A stretch of DNA of 61,430 bases from a candidate division WWE3 bacterium (GTDB lineage Bacteria > Patescibacteriota > WWE3 > UBA101185 > UBA10185): NCBI GenBank assembly GCA_003599255.1, contig QZJF01000017.1, forward strand, positions 179,278-240,707, written 5' to 3'. The notes below the pieces were generated by a model. The model was given only the letters and a program-made list of their open reading frames with translations, was not told where the DNA came from and did not search any database. Below, piece by piece: positions 38,860-49,027 of this stretch; position 1 is the first letter of the stretch, and the number at the start of each line of letters is the position of its first letter. The translations under genes and the position numbers were made by a program.

Positions 38860-39021
38860 ATGCCTTATAGAGATGGTACGGGTCCGGATGGAAAAGGTCC
38901 CAAAACAGGAAGAGGGTTAGGACCCTGTGGAGGAGGTAGTGGGCAGGGACAAGGACAAAACCGAGGGAGAGGCCTCAGAAGAAGATCGCGAATTCAGCCG
39001 GATTCGGATAATAAAAATTAA
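38860..39021 (+). CDS. DUF5320-family Gly-rich small protein (53 aa, below the ORF-track cutoff)
   Basis: My translation is MPYRDGTGPDGKGPKTGRGLGPCGGGSGQGQGQNRGRGLRRRSRIQPDSDNKN*. GGAGG lies 9 nt upstream. The N-terminal MPxxDGTGPxGxGPxTGRG pattern is typical of DUF5320. Confidence 0.65.
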   Translation: MPYRDGTGPDGKGPKTGRGLGPCGGGSGQGQGQNRGRGLRRRSRIQPDSDNKN

Positions 39022-39035
39022 GCAATATTTATAAG

Positions 39036-39335
39036 ATGCCTAGACCAAAATTAAGAAGACATCTGAGATTCAATCCGGAAGTGATTTTTTTCAAGCCGCG
39101 CGGTGTGCCTTTAAGAAACCTTGAGGTTGTGGAATTGTTTCCAGATGAAATTGAAGCAATAAAATTGTATTTTGTGGACGATTTGGACCAAACAAAATCT
39201 GCTGAGATGATGAAGATATCCCAGCCTACATTTGCCAGAATTGTCAATTCTGCGATGAAGAAGTTATCAATGGCAATAGTTGAGGGCAAAGCAATACAAA
39301 TATCACATAAAGACGATGCATTTAAGGGGCAATAA
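39036..39335 (+). CDS. DUF134 (UPF0251) predicted DNA-binding protein
   Basis: MPRPKLRR...FKPRGVPLRNLE...DEIEAIKL...SQPTFARIVNSAMKKLSMAIVEGKAIQI matches the DUF134 consensus along its whole length. Confidence 0.8.
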   Translation: MPRPKLRRHLRFNPEVIFFKPRGVPLRNLEVVELFPDEIEAIKLYFVDDLDQTKSAEMMKISQPTFARIVNSAMKKLSMAIVEGKAIQISHKDDAFKGQ

Positions 39336-42724: not shown

Positions 42725-42878
42725 TCACTTCGCTCGAAAATGAGACAAATGAGACAGTATAAAAAGGAATTTTCTGCTTAGCGTTAATACTTATCTTATA
42801 GTTTCCTGAATTGCGTAATTGCAGCAAATTGGCTATTATCTGGCTAACAGTTTTATCGAAATAATCACATGAAAGGAG

Positions 42879-44276
42879 ATGAAAATGTCTTACCGGCTTA
42901 AGGACGGTGTGTATTTGGTGGAGGGGGCAACAAGAGGTGCAATTCTTGATACAAATTCCGGTCTTGTCTATTCCGTTAACGGAACGGCATGTCAGATTGT
43001 CAATTATCGTATCGGAAACGATGCATATTGGGAACAGTTGGTAAAAATGGATATCGCTGAAATATCTGATTCTACCTACAGTCCTACAATTCAACCCTTG
43101 AAAGACACCGAAAGATTGAAATTCGTTTGGTTTGAAGTCGTAACAGATGACTGCAACGAGCGTTGCGCACACTGTTATGCTGGGTCTATGCCAAGAACCT
43201 ATCGCAGAGAGATGGGTATTGTAGAGGCAGCTGTACCAGTAATCAACACAGTACCCGGTCTCAGGAAGATGACACATTCAGACTGGCTCCGACTCATGAG
43301 ACAATCATATGATTTGGGTTGTCGAGCAGGTCAGCTTATTGGAGGTGAACCTTTTTTATATAAAGGTGAAAACGGCGAGTCACTTCTGGATTTGGCGCAA
43401 TACCTGGTTGAGTTGGGATACACACGTGTTGAGATCTTCACCAACGGTACCTTGCTAACACAGGAAAAAATCACTCGGATAAAAGAGTTGGGGTTGCACG
43501 TTGCAATTTCACTGTATTCAAGCGATCCCCTTGTCCACGATTTGGTAACGAGAACACCGGGAAGTCATGCTAAAACCATGCGAGCTATACAGTGGCTCAA
43601 GGAAGCAAATGTGCCGTTGCGAGTGGAGACGGTGTTGATGAAGGTGAATCAAGCAACAATAACGCAGACAATTGAGCTTAAAGACACGCTTGATGTTGCT
43701 GGTCGACATCCAGATCCCCTGCGTCCCAAAGGTCGTGGAGATAATCCACTTCTACAACCCGACTTCGAACACTTGGTTCGTTATGGCTTAATGCTGAGAC
43801 CAAATTTTACTGCGGAGACTGAGACGGTTCCTCATTACTATACAGGACACTCTTGCCTTTTAGGCAAGATTACTGTAACCGAGTTTGGGGACGTTCTACC
43901 CTGCATATTCTCGCGAGATAATATTGTGGGAAACGTACTCGTGGCCCCAAGTTTAGAAGCCGTTCTAAGAGGGCCGGTTCTTAAGAGGATTTGGTATGCA
44001 ACCAAAGATGGGGTTATGGTTTGTCGTGATTGCGAATATAGATACGTATGTTTCGATTGCAGACCACTATCGGAAGGTGCTTCCGCGGGTAAGGCAGGAT
44101 ACTTAGATGCTCCCTACCCAAGATGTACCTACAATCCTTACACAGGCGAATGGGGGCAAGGTTTATGGAAAGTGGATGAGCTGGGAAACCCATTCTATGA
44201 TCGGACTTTAGCAGCCGAAATTCAAGAAGTTGCATCTAGTATGTCCGAGTCGGCAAATGCTCCAGTTGCTCATTAA
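42879..44276 (+). CDS. Radical SAM / SPASM-domain peptide-modifying enzyme
   Basis: CNERCAHC (CX3CX2C) at residues ~92-99, then a C-terminal SPASM pattern: C-x10-G-x4-C (CLLGKITVTEFGDVLPC), then CRDCEYRYVCFDC and a later Cys. A ~90-aa N-terminal extension precedes the cluster. The second ATG (42885) has better spacing to GGAG. Confidence 0.85.
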   Translation: MKMSYRLKDGVYLVEGATRGAILDTNSGLVYSVNGTACQIVNYRIGNDAYWEQLVKMDIAEISDSTYSPTIQPLKDTERLKFVWFEVVTDDCNERCAHCYAGSMPRTYRREMGIVEAAVPVINTVPGLRKMTHSDWLRLMRQSYDLGCRAGQLIGGEPFLYKGENGESLLDLAQYLVELGYTRVEIFTNGTLLTQEKITRIKELGLHVAISLYSSDPLVHDLVTRTPGSHAKTMRAIQWLKEANVPLRVETVLMKVNQATITQTIELKDTLDVAGRHPDPLRPKGRGDNPLLQPDFEHLVRYGLMLRPNFTAETETVPHYYTGHSCLLGKITVTEFGDVLPCIFSRDNIVGNVLVAPSLEAVLRGPVLKRIWYATKDGVMVCRDCEYRYVCFDCRPLSEGASAGKAGYLDAPYPRCTYNPYTGEWGQGLWKVDELGNPFYDRTLAAEIQEVASSMSESANAPVAH

Positions 44277-44313
44277 CAAACTACTACGCTAGAAAAGAAA
44301 GGAGGTGAGACAC

Positions 44314-44466
44314 ATGAATACGCAGCAAAACGTAGTTGTAGAAGAACCAACAATCGAATTGGTTACAGTTGTTGTGGGCGATGACTCGACACATTCGTGT
44401 AAACCAACGTGCCGTCCGATTTGTTCGCCAAGTGACCCTTGCGCACCTTGTAAACCTGACAAGTAA
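44314..44466 (+). CDS. Candidate RiPP precursor peptide (50 aa, 5 Cys; below the ORF-track cutoff)
   Basis: My translation is MNTQQNVVVEEPTIELVTVVVGDDSTHSCKPTCRPICSPSDPCAPCKPDK*. AAAGGAGGTGA lies 5 nt upstream of the ATG. The gene starts 37 nt after the rSAM stop and ends at a strong terminator. Confidence 0.6.
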   Translation: MNTQQNVVVEEPTIELVTVVVGDDSTHSCKPTCRPICSPSDPCAPCKPDK

Positions 44467-44481
44467 GTAAGTGCCTACAAA

Positions 44482-44525
44482 CTAGTGTGTTTGCATTGTT
44501 TCAAGATTTTATGCAAACACACTAG
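44482..44525. terminator. Bidirectional hairpin terminator between convergent genes
   Basis: A 15-bp perfect stem, CTAGTGTGTTTGCAT (44482-44496) with ATGCAAACACACTAG (44511-44525), a 14-nt loop, and T-rich sequence after the stem. The right arm includes the stop of the minus-strand gene. Confidence 0.75.
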
Positions 44526-45313
44526 GCCTTTTTATCAAGAATAAAGTCTACCCATTTGTCTCCTAGTTTTTCCATTAGTATCTTTCCGATTACGTAAGCG
44601 CCCACATGGGATTCATCTAAAACAGATTCCTCGTTTTTTAGTTTGTCGCTGGTTTCCTGATTCAAGTACCTATCAATAGTTTCCAGGCCTGTAGAATCCA
44701 GTTGCTTTTTATACTCTGGCCAAAAATATTTTGCGGCCGAGTATTCAGTGCAAAAAGCAAATGTTTCTGATTCAATTAAATGCCGGGGTAACCTGATTTC
44801 AAAATTTTCTAAATTTGTCTCCTTTCCATTATATAAATCTTTTGCAATGTTCATTAACTTTACGTTGTAATCGTAGTTTGAGAACCAGCTATTTTTTATA
44901 TTCTCATAATAGACATGACCAAATTCGTGGATAATCGTAGCCCCATAACTTTCGGTAGTTGTGTATATGCTCTTGTTTTCCCGTTGTTGATGTGATTTTA
45001 TGAAAATGGATTGTACAGGTCCAGAAATATAATTTATGTCATTAGATAATTCCCGTCTAATTTCGGGAATAGAAATGGATGCACGCCAACCAAGTTTATC
45101 TGTCCTTGATAATTGCACACCGTGCGCAAATTTTTTAAATGTGCCATTTTGTTGTATAACGTAAGCAAACTTGGAATCGTATGTCACTAGTTCAGTGTTG
45201 TCTAATAACCTGCGATTCTTAAAAATAAAGTCTAGCTCACTTCTTTTTAAAAAAGTTAAAACTTGTTTAATAACCTCAACATCTTGTTCTGTTGCTATGT
45301 AACTTTCGTTCAT
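44522..45313 (-). CDS. Putative zinc metalloprotease (HExxH)
   Basis: 263 aa with a single IIHEFGHVYYE motif. No signal peptide and no further family assignment. Confidence 0.45.
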   Translation of the reverse strand: MNESYIATEQDVEVIKQVLTFLKRSELDFIFKNRRLLDNTELVTYDSKFAYVIQQNGTFKKFAHGVQLSRTDKLGWRASISIPEIRRELSNDINYISGPVQSIFIKSHQQRENKSIYTTTESYGATIIHEFGHVYYENIKNSWFSNYDYNVKLMNIAKDLYNGKETNLENFEIRLPRHLIESETFAFCTEYSAAKYFWPEYKKQLDSTGLETIDRYLNQETSDKLKNEESVLDESHVGAYVIGKILMEKLGDKWVDFILDKKA

Positions 45314-45452: not shown

Positions 45453-45529
45453 TGGTCGGGGTGACAGGACTCGAACCTGCGACCTCTCGCACCCCATGCG
45501 AACGCGCTAGCCAACTGCGCTACACCCCG
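45453..45529 (-). tRNA. tRNA-Pro (anticodon GGG), CCA encoded
   Basis: Hand-folded cloverleaf of 77 nt. Acceptor CGGGGTG/CACCCCG, D arm GCGC-AGTTGGCTA-GCGC, anticodon arm TTCGC-ATGGGGT-GCGAG, T arm GCAGG-TTCGAGT-CCTGT, discriminator A, then CCA. Confidence 0.9.
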
Positions 45530-48388: not shown

Positions 48389-49027
48389 TTACTCTCGGGT
48401 GAATTGCATGATAAACAATGGTCTTTCCTGCGTCAACCCGATCTTTTTCCCCCAGGTGGATTCCAGCTTTCTCAGATATGCCGGTTCCGTGGGATTCAGC
48501 GACATAAGCGTTAGGCCCGACCCTCTATATGCCGGTATCGTTTCGTTGCGTAGATAGGATATATTAATTTCCGGTAAATCCAATCTTTTGGATTCAGACG
48601 GTTCGAGATTTGGAGAATATCCAAGCACTGTTTCGAGAGTCCCCCCTTTTTTAAGAATCGCTGCAACATCGGAAAGTGCTAGTTTATCGGGTTTTACAAG
48701 TTTCTGAAGCAAAGTTCCCCAAGGGAGAATTATATACACTTTATCGGCTTTTCCTCGTAATTCCGGAGGTAATTGCTCAACCGAACTCACCACAAATAAG
48801 ACATTGATTAATTTTTTTCTTACGGCCTTTTTTGAATAGATTTGGAGCTGCTTTTCGCTTGGGTCAATTCCGATAAAAAAAATCTCATGCTTTTTAAGCG
48901 CGTTCTTGTATACAAATCTTCCGTCTCCCGTGCCTAGATCTATCACAACTGTGGGAAAATTTTCAATAATTTTATTTAATTCCGGTTCATTAATTTCTAC
49001 AGTTTTGTTCCCTTTTACTATACGCAT
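48389..49027 (-). CDS. 16S rRNA (adenine1408-N1)-methyltransferase family (NpmA/KamB-like)
   Basis: IVKGNKTVEI...ELNKII...VIDLGTGDGRFVYKNA...FFIGIDP...ILPWGTLL...STWGKK is co-linear with my recollection of NpmA (ILKGTKTVDL...IDLGTGDGRNIYKLA...FYIGIDP...LFPWGTLL...SLWAKR). Similar length. Confidence 0.55.
   Translation of the reverse strand: MRIVKGNKTVEINEPELNKIIENFPTVVIDLGTGDGRFVYKNALKKHEIFFIGIDPSEKQLQIYSKKAVRKKLINVLFVVSSVEQLPPELRGKADKVYIILPWGTLLQKLVKPDKLALSDVAAILKKGGTLETVLGYSPNLEPSESKRLDLPEINISYLRNETIPAYRGSGLTLMSLNPTEPAYLRKLESTWGKKIGLTQERPLFIMQFTRE

Follow-up and report, generated by a model that had tools for sequence, protein, structure and literature searches.

A stretch of 61,430 nucleotides (nt) from a candidate division WWE3 genome (contig QZJF01000017.1, positions 179,278 to 240,707 of the forward strand; hereafter the window) contains what we read as a minimal peptide-maturation module of the ribosomally made, post-translationally modified peptide (RiPP) type. 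The module would consist of three genes: a putative radical S-adenosylmethionine (SAM)/SPASM peptide maturase of 463 amino acids (aa) (42885..44276, + strand), a 50-codon gene for a peptide whose cysteines all lie in C-x-P units (44314..44466 with its stop codon, + strand), and a convergent gene for a 263-aa protein with an HExxH motif, putatively a leader peptidase or a tailoring enzyme (44522..45313, - strand). We put the probability that the three genes form such a module at about 0.6. That the peptide is the substrate of the adjoining maturase is a safer claim, which we hold to be very probable. The enzyme and the peptide had been singled out in an earlier note on this DNA; the HExxH gene lies just beyond the coordinates covered there and is not mentioned in it.

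A recurrent family of C-x-P precursors

The small gene travels with the enzyme. A scan of one genome per species yielded 78 loci (79 with the window, for the clustering of neighbouring genes), and in 55 of them a small open reading frame (ORF) with a Cys/Pro-rich C-terminal half adjoins the radical SAM gene. When the enzyme is at least 42% identical to that of the window, this is true of 33 loci out of 35. Conservation of the small ORF next to homologous maturases was one of the tests that the earlier note had fixed in advance for its proposed precursor-maturase pair, and the pair stands. Within 1.2 kb of the radical SAM gene, 55 of 1465 ORFs of 30-140 aa have at least three C-x-P units (51 loci); beyond 1.5 kb in these loci, which serves as an unbiased control, only 2 of 2059 do. 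In five close relatives (loci L001, L079, L081, L083 and L085, with enzymes 76-84% identical) the peptide is always encoded 30-47 nt downstream, while the flanking genes are DUF6624/Mrr, ArsP/thioredoxin or a glycosyltransferase instead of the TypA gene found in the window. Since the flanks differ among such close relatives, the conserved unit is the module and not the neighbourhood.

The precursor gene of the window begins 37 nt after the maturase stop codon, behind a strong ribosome-binding site (AGGAGGTGA, 44300..44308, + strand) whose GGAGG core (44301-44305) is separated from the ATG by 8 nt; L081 also retains the AAAGGAGGTGAGA part of this site. The leader (residues 1-28; 44314..44397, + strand) contains EEPTIELVT, an instance of the motif xP[T/E]-I-x-L-V-[T/S] that recurs in most Patescibacterial precursors, and the core (residues 29-50, CKPTCRPICSPSDPCAPCKPDK, plus the stop codon; 44398..44466, + strand) consists of five C-x-P units: CKP, CRP, CSP, CAP and CKP. 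Of the 452 ORFs of 30-140 aa in the six reading frames of the window, no other has three or more such units. Spacer, ribosome-binding site and translation are exactly as the earlier note gave them. Its description of the cysteines, each with Pro or a small residue within one or two positions, was too loose, the context being strictly C-x-P for 5 out of 5. The note was right that the ORF is real and coding but not that it is unannotated, because a public protein collection lists the exact product, on 3 contigs. Between the window and L081, the core differs by 15 synonymous and 3 non-synonymous changes over 23 codons (stop included) and the leader motif by 3 and 1 over 10 codons; the corresponding figures for the maturase gene are 212 and 112. 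At the level of codons, the precursor peptide is thus under strong purifying selection, i.e. it behaves as a coding gene. Neither the window peptide (NCBIfam, E <= 1) nor ten diverse relatives had a single match in NCBIfam or Pfam.

Across the family, a leader motif, xP[T/E]-[I/L/F]-x-[L/I]-V-[T/S], is followed by a variable linker and a C-x-P core, EEPTIELVT being identical in many WWE3 and Microgenomates members. The C-x-P rule holds for 341 of the 370 Cys (92%) in 61 precursors, against 87 +/- 7 in shuffled cores. The figure of 92% is somewhat circular, part of the precursors having been chosen for their C-x-P units, but the subset picked only by a filter for three or more Cys in a downstream ORF shows the same pattern. 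Position +1 of the unit is free (S, G, N, R, P, A, K and others), the Cys are spaced by 3-7 residues and a precursor carries 2-20 units. Four precursors stop exactly at the last C-x-P and many others one residue later. The recognised unit seems to be C-x-P itself.

Within the Patescibacteria, the module is found in WWE3, Woesebacteria, Roizmanbacteria, Amesbacteria, Levybacteria, Dojkabacteria and others, and the family extends to Chloroflexota, Latescibacterota and archaea. In Patescibacteria the precursor gene mostly follows the enzyme gene on its own strand, 0-120 nt downstream; more distant lineages have it upstream. Upstream C-x-P genes occur for instance in Thermoproteota, Bathyarchaeia, Methanothrix and a deltaproteobacterium (L042, 3582-3965; L049, 3603-3974; L053, 3549-3956; L056, 3689-3973). 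Their products, of 94-135 aa, combine a leader-like N-terminal motif (e.g. MTEEPTIELL) and spaced C-x-P units with a C-terminal, amphipathic, coiled-coil-like helix, and look protein-like rather than like short peptides. Other variations were noted. Two different C-x-P precursor genes stand in tandem downstream of one maturase gene in L025, L032 and L040, and some loci have a second radical SAM paralogue adjoining the first (94 radical SAM ORFs in 78 loci). Many Microgenomates precursors bear a poly-Pro tail after the last C-x-P (PPPKPPGPN, PPPKPPGPH, PPGPPKPPGPN, PPPPKPPPPKPPN); the tailed precursors (L004, L005, L009, L011, L014, L026, L030, L044 and L071) are all paired with the first of the two HExxH families described below.

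A radical SAM enzyme with seven SPASM cysteines

The maturase ORF spans 42879..44276 (465 aa, TAA stop at 44274-44276). Its ribosome-binding site, AAAGGAG as read off the sequence (42872..42878, + strand), abuts the ATG at 42879 and lies 6 nt 5' of a second ATG at 42885. Because this site directly adjoins the first ATG, and because homologues have about 463 aa, the true start is probably at 42885. The Fe-S motifs announced in the earlier note are present where it placed them: a CX3CX2C motif (C90, C94 and C97; 43152..43175, + strand) predicted to ligate the radical SAM [4Fe-4S] cluster, and a full SPASM signature (43854..44126, + strand) predicted to bind two auxiliary Fe-S clusters, with the layout C324-x10-G335-x4-C340 ... 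C380-x2-C383-x5-C389-x2-C392 ... C414. In 26 homologues these ten Cys (the SAM cluster's three and the seven of the SPASM signature) are invariant, as are His322 and Asp277 near the SPASM Cys; no eighth conserved Cys was found in the SPASM region of this set.

The enzyme is a clear member of the radical SAM family (PF04055, E 4.7e-21, 76.1 bits, cut-off 29.5). Every NCBIfam match is far below its cut-off, and the best 25 listed all score 84.7 bits or less: AhbD 84.7 (cut-off 500), the SPASM domain of the grasp-with-spasm family 71 (175), StsB 67.9 (625), PqqE 53.8 (381), AlbA 47.3 (850) and MftC 40.6 (265). After the heme enzymes, the nearest full-length curated match is the sactipeptide maturase StsB. 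The SCIFF maturase and anaerobic sulfatase-maturating enzyme (anSME) models are absent from the 25 best matches, and anSME is absent as well from the list obtained with the SPASM half alone, whose best domain match is TIGR04193 (E 4.6e-20, 72 bits, cut-off 175). These results agree with the earlier note in placing the maturase outside the clades with other known substrates, such as anSME and PqqE, and, together with the lack of any match for the peptide, outside the SCIFF systems. At least 612 homologues are present in a protein collection clustered at 90%; they are mostly Patescibacterial, the named hosts being candidate division WWE3, Woesebacteria, Roizmanbacteria, Amesbacteria and "Patescibacteria group".

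By sequence, the best match in the PDB is TigE (E 4e-12); searching with just the SPASM half brought up nothing but spurious Cys-rich matches, e.g. phospholipase A2, and this result was discarded. An AlphaFold2 model (predicted local distance difference test score, pLDDT, 73; predicted template-modelling score, pTM, 0.76) shows an N-terminal domain made of a beta-sheet plus helices, a TIM-like radical SAM core and a poorly resolved SPASM region. Compared with the PDB by Foldseek, the model is closest to SkfB (3.9e-14), followed by SuiB, TigE and CteB (1e-9); anSME (anSMEcpe, E 5e-9), PqqE and ChlB rank after these peptide maturases. The alignments run over 415-460 columns and take in the N-terminal peptide-binding domains of SkfB, SuiB and CteB, which bear a RiPP recognition element (RRE). 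The N-terminal domain of about 80 aa (42885..43124, + strand), modelled as beta-beta-beta-beta-alpha-alpha, may therefore be an RRE-like peptide-recognition domain. The earlier note had suggested as much; the structural alignments, to TigE as well, are in keeping with the suggestion, which keeps its putative status as a statement about the modelled structure.

A convergent HExxH gene

The third gene runs towards the precursor gene, and a 15-bp perfect hairpin (44482..44525) may serve both as a shared bidirectional terminator. The hairpin, already pointed out in the earlier note, has a 14-nt loop between its arms (44482-44496 and 44511-44525), and the HExxH gene has its stop codon (44522-44524) within the 3' arm. 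The folding energy of -23.1 kcal/mol (z = -3.9) was equalled by none of 200 shuffled sequences.

A HExxH homologue or analogue adjoins the radical SAM-peptide pair in 36 of the 79 loci. Two families account for these: family 1 (about 260-290 aa) in 22 loci including the window, nearly always convergent and right after the peptide gene, and family 2 (about 240-270 aa) in 14 loci at the same position. We looked for common descent of the two, but hhalign aligned only the HExxH helix, with a probability of 0.7%, and they are treated as analogous; a remote representative match, P0277, was also set aside, having no similarity to family 2. Invariant features of the HExxH family of the window are an ESYxATIxHEFGHxY motif (HEFGH at 44915-44929), a Glu 50 residues further on (E183) and H236. 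The protein has no Pfam, NCBIfam (E <= 1) or PDB sequence match above threshold; the hints below threshold are all to zincin peptidases (MPTase-PolyVal, SprT, M60 and M78). An AlphaFold2 model, built with database homologues, is well defined (pLDDT 89) and found no significant fold match in the PDB by Foldseek. The family is also rare, with matches in only 146 of the 50%-clusters among 1.84 billion protein representatives.

Among the close relatives, the two families go with different cores. Family 1 accompanies cores ending in CSPxDPCAPCKPD[K/S] (window, L081) and family 2 cores ending in CxPD-x-I-CxPD... (L001, L079, L083, L085), so that enzymes about 80% identical, with near-unchanged leaders, are paired with either of two HExxH proteins unrelated in sequence, one convergent and the other co-directional. 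As leader and enzyme barely change while the HExxH family follows the core subtype, this pattern hints that the HExxH protein reads the core, in a sample that is small and phylogenetically non-independent. Whether it is a peptidase we would call at even odds.

What reaction takes place at C-x-P?

The core is Cys-rich, the SPASM region has seven Cys, and the closest relatives by fold and by hidden Markov model (HMM) are sactipeptide and ranthipeptide synthases. For these reasons, and by analogy, the modification we favour is a thioether, although we would place its odds slightly short of even; the earlier note had likewise pointed to thioether-forming maturation, which is plausible. By definition, the Cys sulfur is bonded to C-alpha in sactipeptides and to C-beta or C-gamma in ranthipeptides. 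In CteB, three Cys ligate auxiliary cluster I and the free site is occupied by a substrate Cys. In anSMEs, eight Cys ligate both auxiliary clusters fully and there is no N-terminal leader-binding domain. Of the seven-Cys SPASM enzymes paired with Cys-rich cores, most so far are thioether synthases (CteB, AlbA, SkfB, PapB). On the comparison of CteB with anSME, the seven-Cys pattern seen here therefore leans to the thioether-synthase type. We propose that the leader, through EEPTIELVT, would dock on the maturase's N-terminal domain in the form of a beta-strand. SAM would then be cleaved at the C90/C94/C97 cluster, and the 5'-deoxyadenosyl radical would take a hydrogen from inside or beside each of the five C-x-P units. 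The SPASM region would hold two auxiliary clusters for thiolate binding and electron removal, one of which, with only seven conserved Cys available, probably has one site left open to which the substrate thiolate binds. The product would contain one intramolecular thioether (S-C) per Cys, at about -2 Da each and -10 Da in total, the Pro at +2 imposing a turn that the enzyme could read. Finally, the convergent HExxH protein might cut off the leader or otherwise tailor the core.

Several observations speak against this scheme or some part of it. No residue is conserved that could be the acceptor: at position +3, Asp or Asn occurs in 32% of the units and Cys in 10% (37 units). Since some precursors end at their last C-x-P, a fixed downstream acceptor is excluded for terminal units, and a general ring between Cys(i) and residue i+3 in a cis-Pro turn, attractive as it is, is ruled out by the same four precursors and by the 37 units with Cys at +3. 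Radical SAM/SPASM enzymes acting on repeat precursors also perform chemistry other than thioether formation, e.g. TigE. On the enzyme side, the SPASM domain PF13186 passes only marginally (21.8 bits, cut-off 21.5) and the TIGR04085 SPASM model scores under its threshold (20.4, cut-off 27), so that the predicted membership of the SPASM subfamily is based mainly on the complete, invariant motif; by Pfam, no PqqD/RRE sequence signature was found in the N-terminal 82 aa of five members. Lastly, Patescibacterial loci show no conserved protease cleavage motif, transporter or immunity gene, ABC ATPases being seen only at some distant loci.

If the product is not a thioether, the cysteines themselves could be converted. 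anSMEs are radical SAM/SPASM enzymes with the recognition motif (C/S)-x-(P/A)-x-R, and to our knowledge they are the only ones that read C-x-P. An anSME-like maturase would abstract a hydrogen from C-beta and turn each C-x-P Cys into a C-alpha-formylglycine, giving a poly-aldehyde peptide (about -18 Da per Cys). The resemblance of this motif to the invariant unit, the self-contained character of a unit that can end the precursor, as a modification on Cys itself would allow, and the presence of anSMEcpe among the structural matches all fit this proposal. Yet the Arg at +4 is not conserved, anSME does not appear in either of the lists of curated matches, and the enzyme differs in its seven invariant Cys and its N-terminal domain, so that we find formylglycine, though a serious rival because of the shared C-x-P reading, distinctly improbable. 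Barely less so is another radical chemistry at C-x-P, namely a Cys-Pro or C-C cross-link, an epimerisation, or a change to the Pro or the variable residue, with the Cys acting later as metal or disulfide ligands. The fold relatives are diverse enough for this (SuiB forms Lys-Trp cross-links, TigE cyclopropylglycine and ChlB cyclophanes, and EpeE epimerises), the Pro at +2 is as invariant as the Cys, and the longer archaeal and deltaproteobacterial relatives look structural or metal-binding more than antibiotic; against it, Cys count and context are what defines the family, and the record of seven-Cys enzymes on Cys-rich cores is mostly one of thioethers. In broader terms, the chemistry could be new because the C-x-P unit is simple and has no obvious conserved acceptor residue. 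C-x-P might be the target of a radical SAM reaction not seen before, such as a Cys-Pro cross-link or leader-guided formation of multiple formylglycines. This would make the products a new class of modified peptide or protein in Patescibacteria and archaea, with the two HExxH families as a new core-specific tailoring enzyme or peptidase. We regard this as possible but on the unlikely side. If true, this would be one of few conserved specialised-metabolite systems in Patescibacteria, and one held in common with archaea.

The role of the HExxH protein and the pairing of enzyme and peptide can also be read differently. Instead of a leader peptidase, the neighbour could be an alpha-ketoglutarate (alphaKG)/Fe(II) oxygenase that hydroxylates the core, for example at the Asp or Asn following C-x-P. 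Enzymes of the alphaKG-HExxH type are a recognised class of RiPP tailoring enzymes, often fused to radical SAM domains, and hydroxylate Asp, His, Gln and Asn (PMC12636437). The co-variation of the HExxH family with the core subtype and not with the leader, and the enrichment of Asp/Asn at +3, would suit such a role, and the HExxH domain of ChlB (8s5f) does appear in the Foldseek list. That match is not significant (E 2.5, TM 0.22), however; no curated HExxH-domain family of NCBIfam is matched at E <= 1, the weak family hints are all to zincin peptidases, and many hosts are anaerobes, in which one would less expect an O2-sensitive enzyme to have a partner that depends on O2. We consider the oxygenase rather unlikely. 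It is more doubtful still that the genes are coincidental neighbours, the radical SAM enzyme acting on an unrelated small-molecule or protein substrate and the small ORF encoding a Cys/Pro-rich peptide with a function of its own, for instance a metal binder resembling metallothionein. The top curated matches are indeed heme-pathway enzymes that act on tetrapyrroles (AhbD, NirJ2), and the RRE lacks a sequence signature, but the heme-enzyme scores are far under cut-offs of 500, the adjacency persists from Patescibacteria to archaea although gene order and flanks change, a conserved leader-like motif precedes a hypervariable core, and the fold of the enzyme is closest to that of peptide maturases. 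Such a coincidence would be very surprising.

Surroundings of the module

In the window, the module stands among housekeeping genes: a DEAD-box helicase, TypA/BipA on the upstream side and TruB on the downstream side. A tRNA-Pro gene (anticodon GGG, 45453-45529, - strand) comes directly after the HExxH gene on its far side. A tRNA-Pro gene also adjoins the module in L001 (6447-6522, TGG), L021 (7607-7683, TGG) and L061 (154-225, CGG), which makes 4 of 44 sequences (the window and 43 loci) and 4 of the 11 tRNA genes near modules. This adjacency could reflect chance, shared synteny, an integration site or tRNA supply for a Pro-rich peptide. The GC content reaches 0.44-0.47 over the maturase and peptide genes (43000-44500), against 0.33-0.40 in the flanks including the HExxH gene. 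The raised value may stem from the amino-acid make-up of an enzyme that is highly conserved rather than from horizontal transfer, the GC content of the HExxH gene being host-like.

Two further features of the window were recorded. The gene at 48389-49027 (- strand) encodes a 212-aa protein of the NpmA family of 16S rRNA (adenine1408-N1) methyltransferases (177 bits, cut-off 60), a type associated with aminoglycoside resistance and found here in a genome of the WWE3/Patescibacteria. On the other side of the module, a Gly/Arg-rich 53-aa ORF of the DUF5320 family (38860-39021, + strand) is followed by a DUF134 protein (39036-39335, + strand), a pairing that looks conserved.

Significance of the module

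A literature search turned up no earlier account of either C-x-P precursors or, in Patescibacteria, this module, most subscription journals being outside its coverage. The module thus apparently represents an undescribed, uncurated and widely distributed radical SAM/SPASM peptide-maturation family whose precursor motif and HExxH partner are both new. Patescibacteria (the candidate phyla radiation) have genomes of about 1 Mb with scant biosynthetic capacity and live attached to other microbes. Because the module is kept across lineages of this kind, it is likely to be of biological importance, for instance in host interaction, defence or metal handling. For enzymology, the attraction is a very small system of one enzyme, one 50-aa peptide and one HExxH protein. 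For annotation, there are three uncurated families (precursor, maturase and HExxH partner) that current pipelines label only as "radical SAM protein" or "hypothetical".

Relation to known systems

The SCIFF/ranthipeptide system CteA-CteB (TIGR03973/TIGR03974) is alike in its precursor, a short leader with a Cys-rich C-terminal core, and in its adjacent maturase with an RRE (putative in our case), a radical SAM domain and a seven-Cys SPASM region; as in SCIFF, a minimal cassette is kept across a whole lineage. The precursors have no sequence similarity, however. Those described here have the C-x-P context, 2-20 repeats and a Pro-rich core, their genes usually lie downstream of the maturase gene and not upstream, and a HExxH partner gene is present. 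Freyrasin (PapA-PapB) offers a parallel to the repetition, since a short Cys motif (CX3D) is repeated in one core and converted to Cys-Asp thioethers; here too one radical SAM/SPASM enzyme presumably handles each repeat independently, and Asp/Asn is enriched soon after the Cys. It differs in the partner of the Cys, which here is Pro at +2 and not Asp at +4, with Asp/Asn present in only a third of the units and some units ending the peptide.

anSME shares the radical SAM/SPASM architecture, a target Cys followed by x-Pro, and a structural match, but its substrate is one motif in a sulfatase of about 500 aa and not a leader-core peptide; besides the missing family-level match and Arg, the module contains no sulfatase gene. 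SkfB, AlbA and StsB are themselves thioether-forming peptide maturases with an N-terminal RRE, SkfB being the best fold match of our enzyme and StsB and AlbA giving weak full-length HMM alignments. Sactipeptide maturase scores of 47-68 bits are nonetheless far from cut-offs of 625-850, and the sactipeptide precursors are unrelated and non-repetitive. PqqE and MftC score under their cut-offs, and the cores of our family are hypervariable in length and repeat number.

In TigB-TigE and GrrA/OscA-GrrM/OscB, too, a radical SAM/SPASM enzyme acts on a short motif repeated a variable number of times, but Cys plays no part in either their motifs (TIGSVS; Gly-rich aromatic) or their chemistry (cyclopropylglycine; cyclophane) (PMC10878394). 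The alphaKG-HExxH oxygenases (ChlB-H, BpmH, PflC; IPR026337/TIGR04267) similarly couple a HExxH domain genetically to a radical SAM maturase. In our module, in contrast, the HExxH protein is encoded by a separate, often convergent gene and matches them significantly neither in sequence, by curated family, nor in fold. Taken together, these comparisons suggest that the module works like the SCIFF/ranthipeptide, freyrasin and sactipeptide systems while, by the available model tests, it falls outside each of them.

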